Source: a virus
Taxonomy: Duplodnaviria > Caudoviricetes
IMG/VR virus record: IMGVR_UViG_3300010397_000013
Location: 1 to 56,196 of that record
Length of the DNA: 56,196 nucleotides
Strand: one strand, 5' to 3'
Shown in pieces: positions 1,317 through 38,440 of the stretch. Each line of letters opens with the position of its first letter. Positions within the stretch are counted from its first letter, which is position 1. Below the pieces are notes generated by a model. It ran no database searches, had not been told where the DNA came from, and was given only the letters and a program-made list of their open reading frames with translations. A program made the translations under genes and the position numbers.

Positions 1317-4300
1317 TTACTTGGGCTTCTTGTTGGTGTCGTAGTTCTGAACACTCATCCCGAACAGCGATAAAATGGCAATGGCTGTTCCTGCTGTAAC
1401 TCCCTGCTCCTGCATCACGCTATAGATGTCACTCATTGACAACGGAATAACAGCATTCATAGCCACAGTCTTTGGTGTAACAGTTTCACCTACTACATTT
1501 TTACCAGTCAAAACGTCCACCACATCTCCAACCACAGGAGATAATTTAGTGCGCAAGAACCGAGCGATCAGGTCTGCGCTTGTGGGATGCCCAAAGGCTA
1601 CCTTACCCCGAATGGGTTCAACTTGGCCCTTACTGTTCACCATTTTCCCAGACGCCAAGCGCGATAGTAGGACGGTCACTTGAGATAATCCAGCGAGCGG
1701 ATCAACGCGAGTGTTTCCCCATTTCATCTTTCCAAAATCAGTAGATCGCGGGTCTGTGTTGATGCTGGCACCAGCAAGCTTTCCAAGACCATAAACAACC
1801 GCCAATCCGCCTAAAAATTTTGCATATTCCTTCGCTACCAAATACCGAGTCTGAGCAGATCCACGATAAGCCGGTTCACCGGCCAAAAGCTGAAACCGAC
1901 TCGCCACCAATCGGGGCGCAAAGAATGCCGTGCTTAGAGTTTCAGCAGCACCCGCTGCCTTCCCCAAATTGCCGCGTCCCGTAGCGATGTTGATATAATT
2001 GGAAATGGCTTCCAGTTCTGCTGGTGTAGCAGTTTTTCCAGAGGTTAAGCTTTCGTGAAGTGCATCGAAAGTATCTGCCCGAAGCCTGTTCAGGAATGTC
2101 ACGTAAGCACGCCCTGAAGCTGCAACCCCTGGAATTTTGCTGGCCAATCTCGACATGAAAGCTTCTTCCATGCTCGTCAGCCTTGCACCTTCACGCGGAG
2201 CCAAGAACAACTTAGATTGCGCATACAACTTTGCGTTTGGACGTGCGGCAATTTCTGCCTCAACTGTGGCAGCGTTTTTCTCTGAGAGCAGAGCCTTGAA
2301 CATTGGCCCAAGTGCTTTTGCTGCTCGCACTGGATTGCCAAGTGAAATGAACCCACCTTGCCGGAATACCGCTGATACATCCCAACTGGTCATTATTGCC
2401 CGGCTGAGATTGAGGGCCTCTTTTGTTCCCATCCAAATCTTTTCCGCTCTTGATTTGCGTAAATAACGTTCGTGCTCAAGGCCGCGATTGAACCTTTCAC
2501 GTAACAAATTAACTTCAGCTTTTGCGGAAGCTGTTATCGGGTCCAATGCCAATTCGCGCTTGATTCTCCGAGGCGAAAAATCACCAGCAGCCAATCGTTC
2601 ATTTAATTCCGCCCTCTCGGTAGCCAATCTGGTTTTAAGGGATTGGATGGCAATTTCTTCCGGGGTCTTTTTTGGTTTGGCCTCATTGCGTAGCCGCTGC
2701 TTGATTTTGTTCAGTTCTGCCAACTCTGCGCGTTTAGCTGAAAGTTCAGGCAACACAGACTTTCCCGGAGTTTTCTTGGCTTCAATGTCACCTTCATTGA
2801 TCTGGCGCGTAACTTCTTCGATGCGCTTATCAATCTCCCCAATTTGTTTCGTTTGCTCTTTGACTCGTTTGGCCTCTTGCAGAGCAGCATCAAGGTTTTT
2901 AAGGTGGGCAATCTGTTCCCGGATTGCTGTTGCTCTCGATTTTAGCGCGTTAAGCTTTTCACTTGCTGGCAGTGGTGTTCCAGCAGGCTTTCCGTAGTCG
3001 CCTTTCCTGGCACGTTCAAGCGCGGCTTCTGCTTGAACTGAATTGCGTTCGGCGGCAGCAATGGCCCTTTCAAGCCGTTGTTCAGGAGTTAATGTCTTAT
3101 CTCCAAAAATTTCATCATTCTCCTTCTTTAGCCTGTCGATTTCTGCTCGTTGAGCAATTGATTCAGCATCAGACGGCGAAACTCGCTTGCCTTTTACAAT
3201 GCGTGTCTTGGTGGCGTTCTCAAATCGCAAATCAGCAATGCGATGCTTATTGCGGGTCTTAATGGCATCCAACGTGGACTTCAACTGGCTGGCCGGATCG
3301 CTGGTAGTGATTCCAAGCTTTTTACTCAGTTCATTTATTTCCTTCGTTCGTCGTCGGGATAGATCGGTTTGTTCAACCCGCTGCTGGCCTGTGCGCAATC
3401 CGGCTTCACCTTTTTGGAGCCGTTCGAGCGTGGAAAGCTTCCGTTCTTCTTCTGACGCTTGAATTAACCGCTTACGAATTGGATCTGATGTGGCGGCTTT
3501 AAATTTACCGTATTGCGTCCAAGCATCACGCGCCTCAACAGTGGTTATTTCGGGGATAATATCTTTCAGGATGCCATGAACAGCATCAGTGATTTCGTTG
3601 CCTAGAATAGTTTTTGGATCTCGCCCCTTACCCGCTTCCTCTTTCAAAAAGTTGCTGGCTAATTCTCTCGCATAGCGTCCGATGTCAGCGTCGTCTGCTT
3701 CATCTGCAACAGCTTCTTTTAATCCTTCGGTGATTGCCTTGCGTTCATCGGCTGTCGATGTGATGGCTTTTTTGATTTTGTCTGCGGTCGCTTTGCCACG
3801 TGCTTTTTCCAGTGTTGATTGTTCATCGGCCAAAACCTTTTCGCTGGCGGCGCGGATTTCGTTGATGTGTTCTCGTGCCCATTCACCCAAGTCTGCAATC
3901 ATTGAGTCAGTCCACTTTGCCACATCCGTCAATCCGCGAGTAAGTTTAGCCGCACCATAGATTGCAGCATCGCTAAGAATAGTGGGGTCAATACCCGCTG
4001 AAGTTCTACCAAGTCTTGCCTTTAATCGCGCAAGGGCTTCATCACCCTTTTTATCCATGTATTTTGCAAATCGTTCAGCCTGTGCTATGACTCCCGGTGC
4101 ATAGGATGGCTGTTGTGCAACTGTGGCCCTGGCTTCCGCTAAAGCTTTGTCCATTTCAGCTTTAGCAACTCGCTCATTGGCAGCAGTTTCAGCTTCAGTA
4201 GCCTTCCTTTCGGCCTCAACTAATTTTTGGTGCAATTCGGCAATTTCAGCATGTTCCTGTTCAGTTAATGGCTCGAATCCTTTTGCTGCTCGCTGCCTTG

Positions 4301-5822
4301 CTTCCATCGCTGCTAGAGTGAAATCCTCCTTCATTAACCGTTGGCGCATCTGCCCGCTCCGTCCCCATTCAGTTCCAACTTTTTTAGCAACCTGCTCAAT
4401 TTTGTTTAACTTATTTTCAAAAAAGGCTGCTCTAGTTTTGGCATCTTCGACATCAGCCATTCTTCCATCTTCGTACGCTTGTGCGCCGTCGCGAGTCGCC
4501 TTGGCGTACTCGTTTTGTAAATCCACGTAACGATGATCAAGAGCCAATACTTCATCGGCATTAATTTGGGTTTTACGTCCTTGCTGTAGATCGTCAATCA
4601 ATCGGTCCTGCCACTCTGGCTCCAAATCAATGCGAGCCATGACGCGATCCCAAACCACGGCATTTTTGAGACGCTGTGGCGCAATTATTGGGGATAAGCC
4701 GCGAGATTGGCGTTCGGCATCAACGGCGGCATTCTTTACTCCAGTAGCGGTTCGGCTGGTTGGAGTGAACTCACTTGGTACTGCCCCGCCCATGCCGATG
4801 ATTTCTGACTCCTGAAGCCCTGGCTGTGGGGTTTGCTCAGTTGGTGCAGGTGGTGCAGGCTGAGTCACGTCAATTGCTGGTTCAGTAGAAGGAGCAGGAG
4901 CAGCTTCTACTGTTTCAAGCTTAGGTGCTTCCGGCGCTTTCCCCTCTTGCTCAAGACGGTCCAGTGTGGATTCGGAGACGGCGAGTTCACCAGCCAACTC
5001 AGCCTTTTGTTCCGCAATATACTTTGCGCGTCTTGCGCTTTCAGCCATTTCAGCCTCAGTCACATCGCGCAATGGCGGCAGTAATCGCGGAGCATTCTCT
5101 TTTGGAAGTGGAGCAGTCTTTGCCCCCTTAGCTATCGCCAATGGAATACCAAGTTGTGCCGCTAATCCAACTGTAGAAGCTATCAGTTCGGGGGTATCCT
5201 TTGCCTGCTTCACTCTTTCCACTGCTTCTGGGATCGATTCAACCATCGGAGCGGCAAAGAGTGGTGTGGCTAATCCCGGCGATCTTACCACTGGTCCCAT
5301 ACTAAAAGCCGCGGCTGGATCGGTAGTGGCACTGAGAACTTCTCCAGCCGCCTTTTGCAATCCTTGGCCAACACTTCCTTCTGAAGCCTTACCAAGCGGG
5401 GAAAGGAATTCAACCGCTCTTTGAGCCTGCTCAGGACTTACGATTGGTTGCTGAGTCAAATCTGGCGCATTCTCAGGTGTCTTTGGAATGCCGGGAATAA
5501 AGCCCAGCATCCTACCCACGCCTTTGCTGGCTACACCCAATGCTGAACGTGCTACTGTCCAAGGTGCTGTGCGATGGAGAATATCAGCACCAGTTTCAAG
5601 TCCAGAAAGAATGGATTGGCCAGCATCCAGTCTTTCACCTTCTTTGCGAGCCTGTTCCAGTTGTACAGTTCTTACCAGCGCACGAGTCTTCTGCATCGAC
5701 TCGGCAGCTTTTTTGTATTCGTCGGGTTCGGCTACTTGATCGAAAATGTCCGATTTGGCTGGCGCAACCTCATCAAAAATATCCTGTTTCGGCGCTTCGA
5801 GTGTATCGAAGATGTCATTCAT
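1317..5822 (-). CDS. Large internal virion / DNA-ejection protein (1501 aa)
   Basis: Largest ORF, helical and Ala/Glu/Lys-rich; N-terminal DIFD repeats; last gene of the tail module, as in podovirus ejection cassettes. Confidence 0.7.
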   Translation of the reverse strand: MNDIFDTLEAPKQDIFDEVAPAKSDIFDQVAEPDEYKKAAESMQKTRALVRTVQLEQARKEGERLDAGQSILSGLETGADILHRTAPWTVARSALGVASKGVGRMLGFIPGIPKTPENAPDLTQQPIVSPEQAQRAVEFLSPLGKASEGSVGQGLQKAAGEVLSATTDPAAAFSMGPVVRSPGLATPLFAAPMVESIPEAVERVKQAKDTPELIASTVGLAAQLGIPLAIAKGAKTAPLPKENAPRLLPPLRDVTEAEMAESARRAKYIAEQKAELAGELAVSESTLDRLEQEGKAPEAPKLETVEAAPAPSTEPAIDVTQPAPPAPTEQTPQPGLQESEIIGMGGAVPSEFTPTSRTATGVKNAAVDAERQSRGLSPIIAPQRLKNAVVWDRVMARIDLEPEWQDRLIDDLQQGRKTQINADEVLALDHRYVDLQNEYAKATRDGAQAYEDGRMADVEDAKTRAAFFENKLNKIEQVAKKVGTEWGRSGQMRQRLMKEDFTLAAMEARQRAAKGFEPLTEQEHAEIAELHQKLVEAERKATEAETAANERVAKAEMDKALAEARATVAQQPSYAPGVIAQAERFAKYMDKKGDEALARLKARLGRTSAGIDPTILSDAAIYGAAKLTRGLTDVAKWTDSMIADLGEWAREHINEIRAASEKVLADEQSTLEKARGKATADKIKKAITSTADERKAITEGLKEAVADEADDADIGRYARELASNFLKEEAGKGRDPKTILGNEITDAVHGILKDIIPEITTVEARDAWTQYGKFKAATSDPIRKRLIQASEEERKLSTLERLQKGEAGLRTGQQRVEQTDLSRRRTKEINELSKKLGITTSDPASQLKSTLDAIKTRNKHRIADLRFENATKTRIVKGKRVSPSDAESIAQRAEIDRLKKENDEIFGDKTLTPEQRLERAIAAAERNSVQAEAALERARKGDYGKPAGTPLPASEKLNALKSRATAIREQIAHLKNLDAALQEAKRVKEQTKQIGEIDKRIEEVTRQINEGDIEAKKTPGKSVLPELSAKRAELAELNKIKQRLRNEAKPKKTPEEIAIQSLKTRLATERAELNERLAAGDFSPRRIKRELALDPITASAKAEVNLLRERFNRGLEHERYLRKSRAEKIWMGTKEALNLSRAIMTSWDVSAVFRQGGFISLGNPVRAAKALGPMFKALLSEKNAATVEAEIAARPNAKLYAQSKLFLAPREGARLTSMEEAFMSRLASKIPGVAASGRAYVTFLNRLRADTFDALHESLTSGKTATPAELEAISNYINIATGRGNLGKAAGAAETLSTAFFAPRLVASRFQLLAGEPAYRGSAQTRYLVAKEYAKFLGGLAVVYGLGKLAGASINTDPRSTDFGKMKWGNTRVDPLAGLSQVTVLLSRLASGKMVNSKGQVEPIRGKVAFGHPTSADLIARFLRTKLSPVVGDVVDVLTGKNVVGETVTPKTVAMNAVIPLSMSDIYSVMQEQGVTAGTAIAILSLFGMSVQNYDTNKKPK

Positions 5823-6820: not shown

Positions 6821-7960
6821 CTAATACCAATCTTCCGATCCGTAATTGCTGTAACTCGGAGGGGCATAGTTCCAAGTGTCTGTGGCTTGATTTGCATAAG
6901 TCCATTCAGGGACATCAGGGTAAGCAGCCTGATCAATAAAAAACATATTTCTGCCAGGCACTCCAGTTGGGATCATGGTGTTGTAAAAAGGATCATCTGG
7001 CCCACCAAATCCGCCGTAACCTGGCCTTTCTGGTCTGACATTCGTTGGGTAGGCATTTCCATTATCGTCATACCACAATCCACCACCGCCTCCGCCAGAT
7101 GGTGTAAATGGATTCGGCGGCATTGATGCGCTTGAACTACCACCGCCTGAAATCGGTTGTGCTCGGTAACCATAACTTGGACTTCCACCCCCTCCACCAC
7201 CACCACCGCCCCGATTGAAATTTCTAGCTGCATCCAAGACTAGCCGTGCTCGTTCAATATCCAACTGTCCAAGCTGCACCTGCCTGCGAAGTTCCAGTTC
7301 CGCTTGTTGCAAACTCAATTGGCCTCGCTGCACAGCGGACAAAATTTGTTGGCTAACATCGTAAGGCTGTGGCACTCGACCATGAGCACCAGAAAGTAAT
7401 GAATTAGCGATTTGCGCACGCCGTTCAACATCGGATTGTCTTAGTCTCCCCGTTGTTTCCGATCCAGCGTAACTGCCGGGAATGCCTCGCGCTGTGGCAA
7501 GTTCAGCGCCTTGCATGGTGACATCATAATTGGCCTGCGCATCATTCGGGTTCAATAATCGCATGGTCGCGCCATACACGGGATCGCTTTGCTGTGCTCC
7601 CCGGTAATAATCCAAGTTGTATTGGTTTACCTGATTCCCAACCCCAATGGCATTACTGACTTCATCTCCTGAAGGCTGAAAAGAAACTGGTTGATACGAA
7701 TTTGGTTGTGTGGCGGTTCGAGAAGCTATCTCTGGATAAAGCTCAGGATACATTTGTTTGGCGGCAGCAATTTGCTGATCCATCGGTGCTGGATTAAATG
7801 GATATCCTCCGCTTGCGCTGTATGGATTGGGTGGCCTTCTCAGAACGTTAGGTCCTGTAGATCCTGGAACAAATGGCATGTATGGCTGCGCAAATTCTCC
7901 GGGATTATCAACTGTGCCGCCAATTGGTTTGCCGGTCTTAGGATCGTAAAATGTTGCCAT
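6821..7960 (-). CDS. Putative internal virion/pilot-like protein (Gly/Gln/Pro-rich)
   Basis: Low-complexity composition and position downstream of the adaptor gene. Confidence 0.55.
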   Translation of the reverse strand: MATFYDPKTGKPIGGTVDNPGEFAQPYMPFVPGSTGPNVLRRPPNPYSASGGYPFNPAPMDQQIAAAKQMYPELYPEIASRTATQPNSYQPVSFQPSGDEVSNAIGVGNQVNQYNLDYYRGAQQSDPVYGATMRLLNPNDAQANYDVTMQGAELATARGIPGSYAGSETTGRLRQSDVERRAQIANSLLSGAHGRVPQPYDVSQQILSAVQRGQLSLQQAELELRRQVQLGQLDIERARLVLDAARNFNRGGGGGGGGGSPSYGYRAQPISGGGSSSASMPPNPFTPSGGGGGGLWYDDNGNAYPTNVRPERPGYGGFGGPDDPFYNTMIPTGVPGRNMFFIDQAAYPDVPEWTYANQATDTWNYAPPSYSNYGSEDWY

Positions 7961-32547: not shown

Positions 32548-32754
32548 ATGTTGGTCATCTCCAGAAAAGCGAATGAATCATTCACCATCGGCGACAGCAT
32601 CACTGTAACCGTCTGCAATATTCGTCTGGACCAAGGCCAACCCATTGTCCGAATTGGGATTGACGCTCCGAAAGAACTCGCTATACATCGCTCCAATGCG
32701 AAAGCTAAGTATGAAAAACCTTCTGACCCTCCTTTTACTGGCAGCCACGATTAA
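32548..32754 (+). CDS. csrA: Carbon storage regulator CsrA/RsmA homologue
   Basis: MLVISRKANESFTIGDSITVTV...VRIGIDAPKELAIHR matches the CsrA consensus. Confidence 0.9.
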   Translation: MLVISRKANESFTIGDSITVTVCNIRLDQGQPIVRIGIDAPKELAIHRSNAKAKYEKPSDPPFTGSHD

Positions 32755-33196
32755 CCTTTTGGCACAGGAACCGCCGATACCCCCACCGCCACAACCACTA
32801 TTGAACGCTGGAGGCAACGCAATTCCAGCCCCACCGATGCCAGTGCCGCCAGAGCCGGCAACACCCGGAACCGCTCATCAGTGTTGGCAGACGAACATTG
32901 TTTTCATTGACACAAACCTTTTGCTTGGCACACGCCTAAACCAAAAAGTGATGACGGCTGGTGTTGAAATCGTCCCTAAGCACTGCCCTAAAATCTGGTA
33001 CTTCGGCATCGTTAACGAAGAACGCCGTCAATGGTGTATCCACGAACATGAAGCAGCGGCATTCGAGGCCAGCCAGTTCGATCCCGGACTAACTCAGTTG
33101 TGGCGCACGAAATATTTCGTTGAGGATTTAATGGTGGTGAAACTTAAAAAACCTACACCGCGCCAATGGATCATCCCCGCACAGGTTTCTAAATGA
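32711..33196 (+). CDS. Putative secreted Pro-rich protein
   Basis: MKNLLTLLLLAATINLLAQ signal peptide. Confidence 0.6.
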   Translation: MKNLLTLLLLAATINLLAQEPPIPPPPQPLLNAGGNAIPAPPMPVPPEPATPGTAHQCWQTNIVFIDTNLLLGTRLNQKVMTAGVEIVPKHCPKIWYFGIVNEERRQWCIHEHEAAAFEASQFDPGLTQLWRTKYFVEDLMVVKLKKPTPRQWIIPAQVSK

Positions 33197-33504
33197 TCCG
33201 CGCACTGTTCATCTTCTTCACTTGTGGCGCGTTTGCACAGACGTTCGACGTAGTGCCAACTCAATGGACTTTTTCGCAGGTTGGCCAGGTGATGACCGTT
33301 CAAGCGTTGTTCCAATCTTCGGTGCCAGGCAGTTACTACTTGCTTCGTTCAACTGATTTAAGTTCATGGACAACCGTGGCTTGCCTTTCGGCCACGAACT
33401 ATGCCTTGCGCCAGATCACAACTCAATGTCCGATGGATACAACGCCGCGAAGTTATTTGCGTGTTGTGCGTGGGGGACTTACGGTAGGTTGTTGCTGCAA
33501 ATAA
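33193..33504 (+). CDS. Putative secreted small beta protein
   Basis: Signal-like N-terminus ending AFA-Q; Y.L.RSTDLSSW motif. Confidence 0.6.
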   Translation: MIRALFIFFTCGAFAQTFDVVPTQWTFSQVGQVMTVQALFQSSVPGSYYLLRSTDLSSWTTVACLSATNYALRQITTQCPMDTTPRSYLRVVRGGLTVGCCCK

Positions 33505-33536
33505 AAATGGTGAGACAGGTTTTACCCCATCTCACC
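33499..33536 (-). terminator. Intrinsic terminator closing the pentamer array
   Basis: Minus strand GGTGAGATGGG-GTAAAA-CCTGTCTCACC followed by ATTTTTATTT. Confidence 0.8.
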
Positions 33537-33744
33537 GTACCCGACCGGACCCCGCCTAACAAAACAATACCGAACCTGACATGGCCTGACCATACCCCAA
33601 TCAACCTGACCAAGGCCCACCATTTCTCGCCATACCATAGAATTCCACTCCACAGACTACCGTTCCTTACCGGCCCGAAGGCCCGTACCGCACCTCGACA
33701 GAACTTAACCCAACTCACCAATCCATACCTTTACTTACCATGCC
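33522..33744 (-). repeat. Phased 5-nt GGY-NN repeat array (candidate guide RNA)
   Basis: 12 units (33744-33685), a UUCG hairpin, then 30 in-register units (33671-33522), of which 21 start with GG and 18 with GGY. Confidence 0.85.
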
Positions 33745-33750
33745 TCTAAA

Positions 33751-34392
33751 TCAGTCTTCCAACACTTCAAATCCAACAACGTTGAAACGTCCGAATGAAG
33801 GACGGAAATCTCCAAGTCCAATCAGCTTGCCAGCCGCCGCAATCGTTGAGTTGAGAAGTTGAGGCTCAATGTATTCCGGCAGGTTGATCATCAAAATGAA
33901 CTTTGCCTTCCAACCTTCACGCATCGCTGGACGCGAACGGGTAATGGCGTTTCTCTGAATACAAACCCTTCTGCGATCCATGTAATCCCACTCTTTAACC
34001 CCAAGACTGGCGAGTGGAGTGAGTGAAATCACAGCCGCCTTAAACAAGTCCGCTGCCGACTTACGCGGGGACCGAGGGTCTTGTTGGAACTTGGCGGCAC
34101 CAACAATCGCACCTCGCAGATATTCACCGGGAATTGCCAACTCGCCTTCATCTGTTCGATAGACGTAGCTTTCAACGTCATCAGATTTTTTCTCTGCACT
34201 TCCTTTCTTGGCCTTCGATTTCGACTCAACCGATTCGCAGTTCCACCGATGGAACAAGATTGGAGCCGTGCCTTCAATTGTGATTTCACACCGATAAGGC
34301 ATCATCATTTCAATGCCATTTGCTGCACCGTTACTTGGAGACTCACCACCTATTGCGCCAACGATTCTATTTTTCTCTAATGTTTTTGCCAT
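33751..34392 (-). CDS. Stand-alone Cas7/RAMP-like RNA-binding protein
   Basis: RAMP-type layout: N-terminal strand EITIEGTAPILFH, LAIPGEYLRGAI (cf. IPGSSLKGA), C-terminal Gly-rich loop GKLIGLGDFRPSFGRFNV. Confidence 0.75.
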   Translation of the reverse strand: MAKTLEKNRIVGAIGGESPSNGAANGIEMMMPYRCEITIEGTAPILFHRWNCESVESKSKAKKGSAEKKSDDVESYVYRTDEGELAIPGEYLRGAIVGAAKFQQDPRSPRKSAADLFKAAVISLTPLASLGVKEWDYMDRRRVCIQRNAITRSRPAMREGWKAKFILMINLPEYIEPQLLNSTIAAAGKLIGLGDFRPSFGRFNVVGFEVLED

Positions 34393-34395
34393 AAC

Positions 34396-34450
34396 TGACC
34401 ACGCCCATCCAGACCGAAGCCGATCACGCCTAACAGGATCACGCCGAAGC
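34396..34450 (-). repeat. Short 5-nt-phased array in the 5' UTR of the Cas7-like gene
   Basis: gcttc ggcgt gatcc tgtta ggcgt gatcg gcttc ggtct ggatg ggcgt ggtca, directly before gttATG. Confidence 0.6.
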
Positions 34451-34578
34451 CCATGGGAATTTTAAGAGCACCAGACCGCCAAAAGTTGTAGCGCCTCGCT
34501 TGGGAAGCGAAGCCAATTGACGACTGGTGCAAATTGTTTTGGTTTGCATAACGGGCTACAATCCGTTTAACAGTTGCA

Positions 34579-34607
34579 ATTTCAGCAGAATACCGGTAAT
34601 AAGTCAA
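34579..34607 (-). promoter_or_regulatory. Putative promoter of the Cas7-like operon
   Basis: TTGACT-17 nt-TGAAAT with an extended TG. Confidence 0.5.
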
Positions 34608-34624
34608 TAATAAACTTTGGAAAT

Positions 34625-34813
34625 ATGAAAATAACCCTGCTCCTTCCACTCCTCTGTCTCTGCTGCACCTCTTGCAGCACAACGAACATCTCGAAGCTCG
34701 CCGAGCAGTTAAAGAACGACCCCGCGACAGTGGACCTCAACGTAACGACTATCTGGGGTTCGTTTCAATTCCATCGCTCGTTCCCAACGAATTGGGTGCC
34801 GCCGAAGAAGTAG
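34625..34813 (+). CDS. Small lipoprotein
   Basis: MKITLLLPLLCLCCTSC lipobox-like signal. Confidence 0.6.
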   Translation: MKITLLLPLLCLCCTSCSTTNISKLAEQLKNDPATVDLNVTTIWGSFQFHRSFPTNWVPPKK

Positions 34814-34814
34814 G

Positions 34815-35380
34815 GCACAGGATGCATTTTTGCGGAGCGTTAACCACTGACTATCATCTTACTCCCCGAATGAGGAGAGATCGAACCGTGATCCGATCTC
34901 ATTCGCCCGTCACGGCGAACAGCCTGTATTAAATTGGTGGCTGCTCGTTGCTTTACCCCGGTTTTTCTCCGGGCAAGCAGCCATTAAAATTGATGCGGCA
35001 TCGAACCCTTGTTCGTTCTCAGCTTGGCTAACCCGCCATGCCGCGTGGCGTTCTCGTTTCGCGCATTTGGCTCGCACTTACCTTACCTTCATGGAGCGCG
35101 TGGAATCAGGTCCACTCTGCTTTGATCCACTACTGCATTGAGCCATTGGTAATTTATTCACAGCCAGCGCCATGTCATATCACAATGAAACCGGGCTGCG
35201 CATTTCTGCGCTCTGTTAATTTCAATCCGCACCCTGCAACTCAATGCGGGGTGACATCTTTATCGCTCTCTGGCGCTGGCTGAAATTTGGTGGCTCCCCC
35301 CGCTTTTCACGAGAATCCCGCGAACAGCCAGCCTAGGACTCTCGTTCGCAGTCATCGGAATTGCACCGATAGTAGCCATA
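34815..35380 (-). ncRNA. Cluster of structured RNA modules, two ending in ACCA
   Basis: No convincing ORF; multiple stems separated by AT-rich linkers. Confidence 0.55.
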
Positions 35381-35386
35381 AATGGA

Positions 35387-35929
35387 TTACGGCTTCGGGG
35401 TCGGAGTGCCAGCAACCAAACCAAGGTTCGCCGCATTGGCTCCAATCACACTGAGGCGGACTACATCGCTGATTTCCTCAACGCCCTCTCCGAGGTCGGC
35501 ATCGGCCTTGACCATGACTTCCGTATCACCCGGATCATCGCTGCTGATCAGGTCAGCGGACAGGCCGTCATCGGCAACCTTCACTTGGCTGCTTCCACTG
35601 ATGACTGTCCATGAAGGTGAGCCATCCAGTTTGGCAGGTTTGCCGGTAGCGGTGACGGGTTTCAACGTAACGTTTACTTGCTGCTCATTTGTTATTCGAA
35701 TTTCCAGGGGCATTTTTATCTCTTTCTCTTTTGGTTTTGGCTGCCCGACAGACCAACCGAATCGAACAGTCCGTGTTTTTGTCTCACTACATCCAAACAA
35801 CCGGCAAAGCCAGTTTTGGAAATTTGTCTTTTTCACAACGTGCTCAATCTCGGCGATTGATGCATCAACTTCAATCACAACTTTAGGCATAGCAACACTC
35901 ACTCTACCTGCTCGCGCCCTTCTCGGCAA
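35387..35929 (-). CDS. Ig-like domain protein (possible internal start at 35713, MPLEIRITN...)
   Basis: Beta-strand-rich C-terminal 108 aa; purine-rich tract before the internal ATG. Confidence 0.6.
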   Translation of the reverse strand: MPRRARAGRVSVAMPKVVIEVDASIAEIEHVVKKTNFQNWLCRLFGCSETKTRTVRFGWSVGQPKPKEKEIKMPLEIRITNEQQVNVTLKPVTATGKPAKLDGSPSWTVISGSSQVKVADDGLSADLISSDDPGDTEVMVKADADLGEGVEEISDVVRLSVIGANAANLGLVAGTPTPKP

Positions 35930-37275: not shown

Positions 37276-37666
37276 GTATCACCTCAATCTTGATTACCGT
37301 TCCCTCCTGCTCGCGCTCCAGCACCTTCACTTGGCTGACTTCAAGCGCAATGTCTTGCGCTCTGTCGTTCGGGATGATTTGCGCGTAGCGGCAGCAATCG
37401 ACAAAATATTTTGGGCAAAGATTGTCTGGATCGATGAGCCTCCGTCGATAAGAGATAATGCTGACCCGAAGGCGCTTTGCGTTGCCTGCTTCTCCTTTTT
37501 GCGTTGCCAAGGATTCATCGCAAAAAGGGCGTTCAGACTCGGAACGGGATGCTTCACAAACAGAGCGATGTCCTTCATTTATTCTTTCAACATTTCTCGC
37601 CAGCGTGCTCTTGCTGGCACCAGGAAAACGGCGTCGAAGTTCGTCTGGAGTGATCTGATTACTCAT
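37268..37666 (-). CDS. RusA-like Holliday junction resolvase
   Basis: RRRLIDPDNL..KY.VD......IPND pattern. Confidence 0.7.
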   Translation of the reverse strand: MSNQITPDELRRRFPGASKSTLARNVERINEGHRSVCEASRSESERPFCDESLATQKGEAGNAKRLRVSIISYRRRLIDPDNLCPKYFVDCCRYAQIIPNDRAQDIALEVSQVKVLEREQEGTVIKIEVIHD

Positions 37667-38097
37667 TTAATTAACTTCTGCTTTGCCGCATCTGCTTTTA
37701 CCTTCTCTGCTTTAGCTGCCTCTCGTTCCGCCTTTGCATCTTCTCTGGCTAGACAACGAATCGTCTCAATTTTCTCATTATTGTAAACAGCGTCTTCTTT
37801 TTCTTTTTGAGTTGGCCCCGAACCCAATGGTGTTCCTTCAAGAAGTATCTCCACAAAAAACGCAGTGAATGTCTTCGCATAGTCCCGATCACTCCAAGTG
37901 AGAGGATTGAGGACTTTTCGCGAAAGTTTTATCGCCGCATTTTCAATCTCTGTGCGAGATGATGACGCTGGGATCGGATCTGTAAACCGAACCTTGGCCG
38001 GATCTTTAGCCACCACAACACAGAGTTCATTATCACGAAGAATCTTGATGTCCTCTGCGCTCATGGAGTTTTCCGGCAGAATAATAATTGGCTTCAT
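37663..38097 (-). CDS. Hypothetical protein
   Basis: 144-aa ORF, first gene of the minus-strand operon. Confidence 0.65.
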   Translation of the reverse strand: MKPIIILPENSMSAEDIKILRDNELCVVVAKDPAKVRFTDPIPASSSRTEIENAAIKLSRKVLNPLTWSDRDYAKTFTAFFVEILLEGTPLGSGPTQKEKEDAVYNNEKIETIRCLAREDAKAEREAAKAEKVKADAAKQKLIK

Positions 38098-38269
38098 TTA
38101 ATTTTCAGCGTGAACGAAAATGGTTTGTTTCAATCCGCGCCCCATAATTACAGGGCGATAACTCACGCGAGCGAGAATGCCGAAATCCAAACTCCCTGTC
38201 AACAAATATTTTTACTTTCGTCAATTATTTTTCTTGACCCTACCCAGAATGAATGATTTGCTTGCATCT

Positions 38270-38440
38270 ATGACCGTAAGAGAAGAAGCGCGACAGTCTG
38301 AAAAGCAGAACCTTGCAAGGCTGCTTAAGATTCACGGTGGCAACATTGCAGCCGTCTCAAAAGAAATGGGATACACCCGAACTGCCATTATCTGGAAGCT
38401 TCGCAAGTACGGCCTTTACAAACCCCTGAGGCGAGCATGA
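38270..38440 (+). CDS. Fis-type helix-turn-helix protein
   Basis: EKQ.L..LL..HGGNIAAVSKEMGYTRTAIIWKLRKYGL. Confidence 0.8.
   Translation: MTVREEARQSEKQNLARLLKIHGGNIAAVSKEMGYTRTAIIWKLRKYGLYKPLRRA

Follow-up and report, generated by a model that had tools for sequence, protein, structure and literature searches.

The phage genome IMGVR_UViG_3300010397_000013 (Duplodnaviria; Caudoviricetes) is a complete record of 56,196 bp with direct terminal repeats, and it was analysed over its whole length, hereafter the window. An untranslated stretch on its minus strand (34393-35386, hereafter the gap) contains six RNA modules, A to F, within 34815-35380, and module B was found to enclose a single unit that mimics a CRISPR repeat of type I-C. 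A second such unit was found 2.9 kb away with genes in between, so that the two do not constitute a CRISPR mini-array. They are referred to here as solitary repeat units (SRUs), SRU-35k and SRU-38k. Module B, along with SRU-38k, is presented as a candidate RNA anti-CRISPR (Racr), and we hold with moderate confidence, by analogy with known Racrs, that it would serve as a decoy against a type I-C system of the host. An initial annotation of the same DNA had raised the possibility of decoys imitating transfer RNA (tRNA). The decoy idea fits module B, but the object mimicked is a type I-C CRISPR repeat and not a tRNA.

Two solitary type I-C repeats

SRU-35k is composed of a 9-bp stem with one C.A mismatch, a 6-nucleotide (nt) loop and an 11-nt handle, CGGATTGAAAT. 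The first lead to it came from a permissive Rfam search, in which positions 35220-35255 matched CRISPR-DR9 at 18 bits (E=0.7). The unit is held inside a closed RNA domain. As the initial annotation had described, CAGCCAGCGCCA and TGGCGCTGGCTG (35271-35282 and 35161-35172) form a perfect 12-bp pair, recovered as 100% complementary by an inverted-repeat search, and inside this helix lie the lone repeat and two further hairpins, GCGCA-GAAA-TGCGC and a smaller one. Folding energies of the modules were compared with 200 dinucleotide shuffles each, and the fold of module B was more stable than that of any of its shuffles (Table 1).

A 19-nt pattern, consisting of the 3' half of the SRU-35k hairpin and the bases that follow it, was scanned against 185,579 genomes, one per species, and matched 37 stretches. 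Twelve of these were arrays of 2-62 copies with a period of 70-74 nt, and two more were array edges; the remaining 23 were single matches, for which a rough estimate gave about 17 expected by chance. The array genomes numbered eight: six were Acidobacteriota (Terracidiphilus, Acidobacteriaceae), and the other two, one Macondimonas and one Hydrogenophilaceae, were proteobacterial. Genes for Cas5d, Csd1 (Cas8c), Cas7, Cas4 and Cas1 adjoin the arrays (loci L120, L096 and L111), and the matching arrays are therefore type I-C.

The host repeat is GCATCACCCGGCAGCGATGCCGGGTGCGGATTGAAAC, to which SRU-35k was identical at 29 of 37 positions, including 10 of the 11 handle positions. Its stem is the host stem except for one pair, and its loop differs. 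When the whole gap was compared by BLAST with five host genomes, SRU-35k aligned, among the matches listed, to the repeats of these genomes with 83% identity over 33-35 nt, and two short matches elsewhere in the gap had E values of 0.01-0.08. The arrays in metagenome-assembled genomes of Acidobacteriaceae and Terracidiphilus (L096, L105, L108, L118, L120 and L126) share with the phage unit the stem core CACCC..GCA / TGC..GGGTG and the handle CGGATTGAAA(C/T). The phage unit differs from them in its single copy, its other loop, a weakened sixth pair, and the lack of spacers and of cas genes. The sixth stem pair, G-C in the host repeats, was weakened to C.A or U.G in SRU-35k, in SRU-38k and in a unit of an unrelated phage contig (L182, 5178-5212).

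SRU-38k lies 29 nt upstream of the ATG of the open reading frame (ORF) 37663-38097, the first gene of a leftward run. It was identical to the host repeat at 27 of 37 positions and to the host handle at all 11, and it matched Rfam CRISPR-DR9 at 29.3 bits (E=1.5e-4) in a 601-nt search. In the computed fold it is enclosed by a GCGUGAG/UUCACGC helix, which closes about 12 nt past the handle. The exact string GGATTGAAA was present only twice in the window, once within SRU-35k and once within SRU-38k (38128-38136, minus strand).

A covariance model, R2, was built from the eight host repeats only, without the phage units. Over the whole window, R2 ranked SRU-35k first (25.5 bits, E=1.3e-4) and SRU-38k second (23.6 bits, E=4.3e-4), the next-best match having an E value of 0.063. 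SRU-38k played no part in the search that yielded the host repeats, and its R2 score and its CRISPR-DR9 match are therefore independent. Across host and phage units, three of the nine stem pairs were changed on both sides, and 98.4% of stem cells were paired, compared with 33-47% when the partner was slid. In 89 related viral loci R2 had no match below E=0.29, and in 44 metagenome loci it had none at E<=1.

No second repeat was found within 100 nt on either side of SRU-35k, and a degenerate copy seen by eye 71 nt past it was rejected by alignment. The 100-nt flanks of both units scored 17-19 of 37, at the level of the shuffle mean of about 18 (92-280 of 300 shuffles scored as high), and both units are therefore solitary. 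Neither was overlapped by an ORF with a homolog, and PADLOC gave 0 matches among 10 neighbouring proteins.

The handle-plus-stem pattern of SRU-38k gave four single matches in 301 Acidobacteriota genomes. One lay in a type I-C array and one was an apparent repeat at a contig edge, both being of a 32-nt variant. This type I-C repeat variant, GTCGCCC...GGGCGCGGATTGAAAC (loci L136 and L137; Acidobacteriota genomes G271 and G068), was nearer to SRU-38k than the 37-nt variant. SRU-35k and SRU-38k may mimic two repeat variants.

The 19-nt pattern also matched one other viral contig, L182 from IMG/VR. An exact 18-nt pattern of the phage had 0 matches in viral contigs. L182 shares no protein with the present phage (0 of 78 ORFs at E<=1e-4). 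Its three listed units (Table 1) are all on the plus strand, which is the strand of most long L182 ORFs, and a search of the whole contig gave four matches at E<=0.05, one of them on the opposite strand. L182 carries at least two, possibly three or four, solitary repeats.

Table 1. Positions of the repeat units, RNA modules and neighbouring features in the window; the last three rows refer to the unrelated contig L182. z, folding energy relative to dinucleotide shuffles, followed by the number of shuffles folding as well.
Feature	Position	Strand	Description
SRU-35k, solitary type I-C CRISPR repeat-like unit	35219-35255	-	GTCACCCCGCATTGAGTTGCAGGGTGCGGATTGAAAT
GCGCA-GAAA-TGCGC hairpin	35198-35211	-	7 nt past the SRU-35k handle, at the would-be spacer position
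SRU-38k, second solitary type I-C repeat-like unit	38127-38161	-	TTATCGCCCTGTAATTATGGGGCGCGGATTGAAAC
Possible leftward promoter	38174-38202	-	TTGACA 38202-38197, 17-nt spacer, weak -10 CATTCT 38179-38174
Module A	35288-35377	-	Stem-closed, ends GGGAGCC-ACCA; z -1.68, 11/200
Module B	35161-35282	-	122 nt, 12-bp closing helix; minimum free energy -50.2 kcal/mol, z -4.95, 0/200
Module C	35065-35150	-	Closed by TGGCTC/GAGCCA; z -0.97, 32/200, indistinguishable from chance folding
Module D	34991-35044	-	GCGGCAT/ATGCCGC helix followed by ATCA; inner CGAAC-AAGG-GTTCG hairpin; z -2.54, 3/200
Module E	34935-34982	-	Perfect 7-bp GGCTGCT/AGCAGCC helix followed by ACCA; inner CCCGG-AGAAAAA-CCGGG hairpin; z -4.33, 0/200
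Module F	34815-34925	-	Four hairpins in a row; z -1.73, 11/200
Upstream protein gene	35387-35929	-	About 150-180 aa; stop codon 10 nt ahead of module A
vipr	33751-34392	-	213-aa RAMP (Cas7-like); phrog_4652
vrRNA region	33509-33744	-	GGYNN tracts 33744-33715, 33676-33642, 33611-33567, 33561-33522
Terminator	33509-33536	-	11-bp hairpin followed by ATTTTTATTT; z -3.77
L182 lone I-C-type unit	5178-5212	+	33.7 bits, E=1.6e-7; between a stop codon and the next ATG
L182 lone I-C-type unit	3575-3615	+	22.3 bits; in a gap between ORFs
L182 weaker unit	6929-6964	+	Same repeat family

Proposed decoy action and competing explanations

Viral solitary repeat units can act as RNA anti-CRISPRs by sequestering Cas proteins in aberrant complexes, and RacrIC1 is a validated RNA anti-CRISPR of type I-C (Camara-Wilpert et al. 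2023, PMC10651486). As with RacrIC1 and the other Racrs described there, each phage unit is a lone repeat-like element in a viral genome, outside arrays and away from cas genes, with a type I-C hairpin and handle, and it lies between genes and shares their strand. Relative to that description, the phage units differ in being just 73-78% identical to the closest repeats found, where the cut-off is 90%, in lying inside long-range closing helices (12 bp and 7 bp), and in occurring as two copies in one gene run with no known acr gene adjoining. Module B is put forward as a new, diverged type I-C Racr candidate with an unusual clamped architecture, a twin copy in SRU-38k and a neighbouring VIPR locus (described below). 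Viral SRUs had reportedly been described by bioinformatic means before Racrs; like them, the phage units are solitary, intergenic and repeat-like, and SRU-38k lies just downstream of a promoter-like -35 element. The differences here are that the SRU-38k promoter was not called by the scan and that SRU-35k is located deep inside a 1-kb untranslated stretch.

In the proposed mechanism, the domain closed by the 12-bp helix would present the lone repeat hairpin and its 11-nt 5'-handle on a transcript, and the repeat-binding Cas5 protein of the host (Cas5c/Cas5d) would bind the transcript at these two elements, by analogy with RacrIF1 and RacrIC1. The bound transcript may recruit Cas7 and Cas8c. 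With a hairpin 7 nt past the handle and a closing helix beyond it, no filament of normal guide length would be expected to form, and unproductive complexes would absorb the Cas subunits, which would then be unavailable to the CRISPR RNAs (crRNAs) of the host. SRU-38k, at the head of the gene run, would act likewise early in infection. The analysis itself established the mimicry of the repeat, the solitary state of the units, the type I-C nature of the matching arrays and the stability of the fold. Transcription of module B and SRU-38k, binding of Cas proteins and the resulting inhibition are what we infer from the likeness to the Racrs.

Several observations weigh against a decoy. The match of SRU-35k to the host model is partly circular, as the host repeats were found via a pattern taken from SRU-35k itself. 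The SRUFinder rule (PMC10651486) demands 90% or more in both identity and coverage against a known repeat; compared only with the repeats recovered in this analysis, the units reached at best 83% over 33-35 nt, or 78% and 73% over 37 nt. Further criteria for an SRU are that no full or partial repeat lies within 100 bp and that a promoter lies within 250 bp upstream. A consensus scan of the minus strand called no promoter-like site up to 250 nt upstream of SRU-35k, and the perfect TTGACA located 36 nt upstream of SRU-38k is accompanied by a weak -10 that the scan did not call. The stem of SRU-35k carries its C.A mismatch on the minus strand, where the plus strand would pair G.U. None of 254 host-array spacers matched the window or the viral loci, and the vipr gene was found in 0 of 301 Acidobacteriota genomes, which lends no support to the host assignment. 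No homolog of the gap was found by blastn in the phage collection, the 89 viral loci or the 44 metagenome loci. Of the six modules, an identity was assigned to module B alone.

An alternative that we consider unlikely is that the gap is mostly non-functional spacer DNA, a junction of two gene modules in which some hairpins arose by chance and a host CRISPR array, acquired in part through recombination, is decaying. Such a junction would agree with a region that is unique to this phage, with flanking genes (p180 and vipr) that never adjoin in the related loci examined, with the failure of modules A, C and F to beat their shuffles, and with the resemblance of one 24-nt stretch (34795-34818) to an NlpC/P60 motif coding sequence. 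However, two separate units have kept the hairpin and the handle while their loops differ, and stem pairs have changed on both sides. Chance hairpins also account poorly for the perfect 12-bp closing helix, the chance of which is roughly estimated at about 0.006 in 1 kb, and for the z values below -4 of modules B and E, and the same repeat family recurs in the unrelated phage L182.

Somewhat less likely again is a processing signal, in which host Cas5c would cut the lone repeats and so punctuate or stabilise polycistronic phage transcripts, the repeat being a processing site instead of, or besides, a decoy. The position of the units speaks for this idea: in both unrelated phages the best units separate neighbouring ORFs and have the same orientation as these, with SRU-38k shortly ahead of an ATG, the strongest L182 unit between a stop codon and an ATG, and the second in a gap between ORFs, and each genome holds several copies. 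SRU-35k, however, is not beside a start codon, and a signal of this kind would work only in type I-C hosts. The published solitary repeats tested so far are inhibitors (PMC10651486), and the two roles are compatible.

It is quite improbable that the units are hijacked guides, in which the repeat and about 34 nt following it would form a crRNA-like RNA that loads host Cascade onto a rival phage or a host gene, as viral mini-arrays and CreA-type RNAs do. A handle intact at 10 of 11 positions in SRU-35k and at 11 of 11 in SRU-38k is what such a guide would need, but no second repeat lies within 100 nt, and what stands in the spacer position of SRU-35k is a hairpin inside a closed domain. The 36 nt past each unit matched nothing in the window or the 89 viral loci beyond chance matches of 11-14 nt, and the matches listed between the gap and the five host genomes consisted of the repeats and the two short matches given above.

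Setting of the gap and the VIPR locus

Turning from the decoy candidate to its surroundings, the gap is bounded by the upstream protein gene and vipr (Table 1). A 101-aa ORF with a TTG start within it (34377-34682) looks spurious, having an implausible sequence and no homolog, and the untranslated gap therefore extends over about 1 kb. The initial annotation had named a conserved protein-coding frame across the region as the observation to look for against RNA modules, and none was found: 0 of 32 stop-to-stop frames of at least 25 aa matched 136 loci at E<=0.01, and the seven longest frames gave no Pfam match and a single PHROG match at E=0.18. Homologs of the upstream gene were found in 9 viral and 44 metagenome loci, and the non-coding region was absent from all of them. 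The gap is part of the leftward, minus-strand gene run, whose start lies near 38200 and whose end is the terminator (33509-33536). At the head of this run, beside SRU-38k, a Fis-type helix-turn-helix gene with an HTH_8 match (38177-38440) diverges on the plus strand.

Sequence near-identical to the phage was found only in soil metagenome runs. Among its ORFs, the 10 largest that were scanned (317-1501 aa), to which the structural genes presumably belong, had no PHROG match at E<=0.001, and the phage is, as judged from its sequence, distant from described families. No integrase was found among the 15 ORFs of at least 300 aa scanned with PHROGs, a weak negative for integration into host arrays.

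The "Cas7-like" neighbour reported in the initial annotation proved to be real. The product of vipr is homologous to Vipr, the RAMP protein of the virus-borne, RNA-guided VIPR systems: it matched PDB 36pp_D, the "SUSP1 Vipr protein", by phmmer at E=1.1e-6, and a profile of 16 homologs matched the same entry at E=8.2e-10 with the GDFRPxxGRF motif aligned. VIPR, the subject of 2026 preprints, consists of a phage-borne RAMP protein with vrRNAs of 9-16 GGY/NN units and a structured tail (PMC13142463). The locus in the window is similar, with a phage-borne Vipr homolog and, downstream of it, a terminator preceded by a GGYNN RNA region. Nowhere in the window was the GG 5-nt periodicity stronger than directly downstream of vipr (33744-33522). 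Of 80 related vipr loci, the best among 102 relatives confirmed in viral contigs, 75 had GG tracts on the strand of vipr and 9 had them on the opposite one. Positions 33509-34392 on the minus strand hold a complete VIPR locus, in which vipr is followed by GGYNN repeats over about 220 nt and then by a strong terminator; a vap accessory gene was not identified there. The vipr gene is a RAMP gene and not a cas gene, and it is located 830 nt downstream of SRU-35k.

The vrRNA region is overlapped by two plus-strand ORFs (33366-33749 and 33193-33504), neither of which is likely to be genuine. The phage also encodes a CsrA homolog (32548-32754, plus strand; Pfam CsrA, E=4.7e-18), opposite in strand to the VIPR locus and some 1 kb away from it.

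There is a slim chance that the gap belongs to the adjacent VIPR system, either as a leader or regulatory RNA or as an unusual upstream vrRNA. According to PMC13142463, vipr genes are typically flanked by long intergenic regions encoding non-coding RNAs, and SUSP1 has one vrRNA upstream; a short GG-periodic tract at 34386-34415 would agree with such an arrangement. Unlike the vrRNAs of VIPR systems, however, the region 34815-35380 has no GGY/NN periodicity and no GG 5-nt tract on either strand, which shows that it is no vrRNA. In the closest vipr loci the upstream gap measures just about 400-600 nt and shares no sequence past 34458, and no solitary repeat was found in the 89 related loci. The searched text of the two VIPR preprints (PMC13142463 and 10.64898/2026.10.15.759431) makes no mention of VIPR beside an RNA anti-CRISPR. 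In that text, the words "Racr", "solitary" and "CRISPR repeat" do not appear in the former, and "Racr" and "solitary" do not appear in the latter, which refers to anti-CRISPRs once as a contrast.

The remaining modules and the wider meaning

All sequence strings quoted for the modules in the initial annotation were recovered at their places on the minus strand. The region was confirmed as structured and untranslated, with modules B, E and D folding beyond their shuffles and A, F and C not doing so. The closing stem of module A requires one mismatch. When the whole region was folded on both strands (20 shuffles each), z was -5.29 for the plus strand and -2.27 for the minus strand. Because the plus strand folds at least as far above its shuffles, folding energy does not fix the strand.

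The exact 9-mer AGCCACCAA occurred in the window only at the ends of module E (34934-34942) and module A (35287-35295). These two modules have similar ends overall, (T)ATGGCT(A/G)CT ... AGCCACCAA(A/T)TT (34931-34942 and 35284-35295, beginning at 34982 and 35377), and module C likewise begins AATGGCTC and finishes GAGCCAAAT. The like ends of modules A, E and C may indicate a small family of hairpin cassettes. A repeat search also returned the motif GGTTCGAT as common to modules D and F.

In the 301 Acidobacteriota genomes, modules A and C-F had no matches above chance level; for modules C-F, 22 genomes were matched at E<=0.05 per genome, close to the roughly 15 expected, and one of the 22, the unpublished G157, supports no claim made here. 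The 24-nt stretch GTGCCCTACTTCTTCGGCGGCACC (34795-34818, minus strand) was 92-100% identical to the sequence coding for the NlpC/P60 motif VPYLFGGT in 9 of the 301 genomes. By tblastn, this similarity was limited to 8 residues (E=7), and the likeness is read as a coincidence or possibly a tiny gene remnant. A sponge RNA of the Csr/Rsm type was considered, on account of the CsrA gene of the phage, and rejected: the region holds 9 GGA motifs in 611 nt, compared with a genome mean of 9.2 +/- 3.7, none of them fully unpaired and most inside stems, and Rfam gave no Csr/Rsm match (E<=10, 34500-35600). Modules A and C-F may belong to the transcript of module B, as domains that stabilise or process it, or may be RNAs with some other function.

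Phage tRNA clusters, such as that of T4, hold tRNA genes and tRNA-like stable RNAs. The initial annotation had suggested that the modules may be tRNA mimics or decoys, degenerate tRNAs or RNase P-processed RNAs with encoded CCA ends. Modules A and E do end in a helix followed by NCCA, perfect over 7 bp in module E and as GGGAGCC-ACCA in module A. They share their terminal 9-mer, and modules D and F share a motif of their own. Unlike the RNAs of such clusters, however, the modules have no cloverleaf, anticodon arm or 7-nt T loop, and no detector matched them. ARAGORN found 0 tRNA genes in the window, and its relaxed calls were scattered over both strands without coinciding with the modules and were taken as noise. 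Weak "permuted tmRNA" (transfer-messenger RNA) calls arose only in a mitochondrial mode with lowered threshold and were dismissed. Rfam gave nothing at its gathering score, and over 34500-35600 its matches at E<=10 included no tRNA, tmRNA or ribozyme. The combination of a 7-bp stem (strands 20-110 nt apart, with G-U pairs admitted) and a following NCCA was counted 254 times in the window, compared with 215 +/- 16 (maximum 264) in 30 Markov shuffles. Because this combination occurs at near-chance frequency, the tRNA-like 3' ends are not special. That the modules are tRNA-like or RNase P-processed RNAs is very improbable. As this case shows, tRNA mimicry is poorly signalled by a helix followed by CCA.

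A broader conjecture, which we consider unlikely as a whole, is that the leftward run is an RNA-based island of counter-defence and competition. In such an island, two helix-clamped type I-C decoys, further stem-closed RNA domains and VIPR would be co-transcribed, and the ACCA-ended minihelices would be decoys or substrates for other host RNA-binding proteins of defence or processing. In that case, the lone type I-C repeats scattered along gene boundaries in soil phages unrelated to each other would reflect a general use of Cas5c as both a sink and an RNA-processing enzyme.

As the leftward run also carries the VIPR locus, one operon would join a weapon against rival mobile elements (VIPR) with a shield against host CRISPR. 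The repeats give a hint of the host group of an otherwise unplaceable phage, pointing to carriers of this type I-C family, whose arrays as recovered here came mostly from soil Acidobacteriaceae. Only a few subtypes are covered by the RNA anti-CRISPRs tested to date, and candidates have been sought by a strict rule of 90% identity. The two phage units, by contrast, are diverged and retain just the stem and the handle, inside closing helices. Helix-clamped decoys such as module B, if true, would be a structural variant of Racrs too diverged for the published finder. The presence of diverged lone repeats in two unrelated phages suggests that repeat mimicry is wider and more diverged than finders report.

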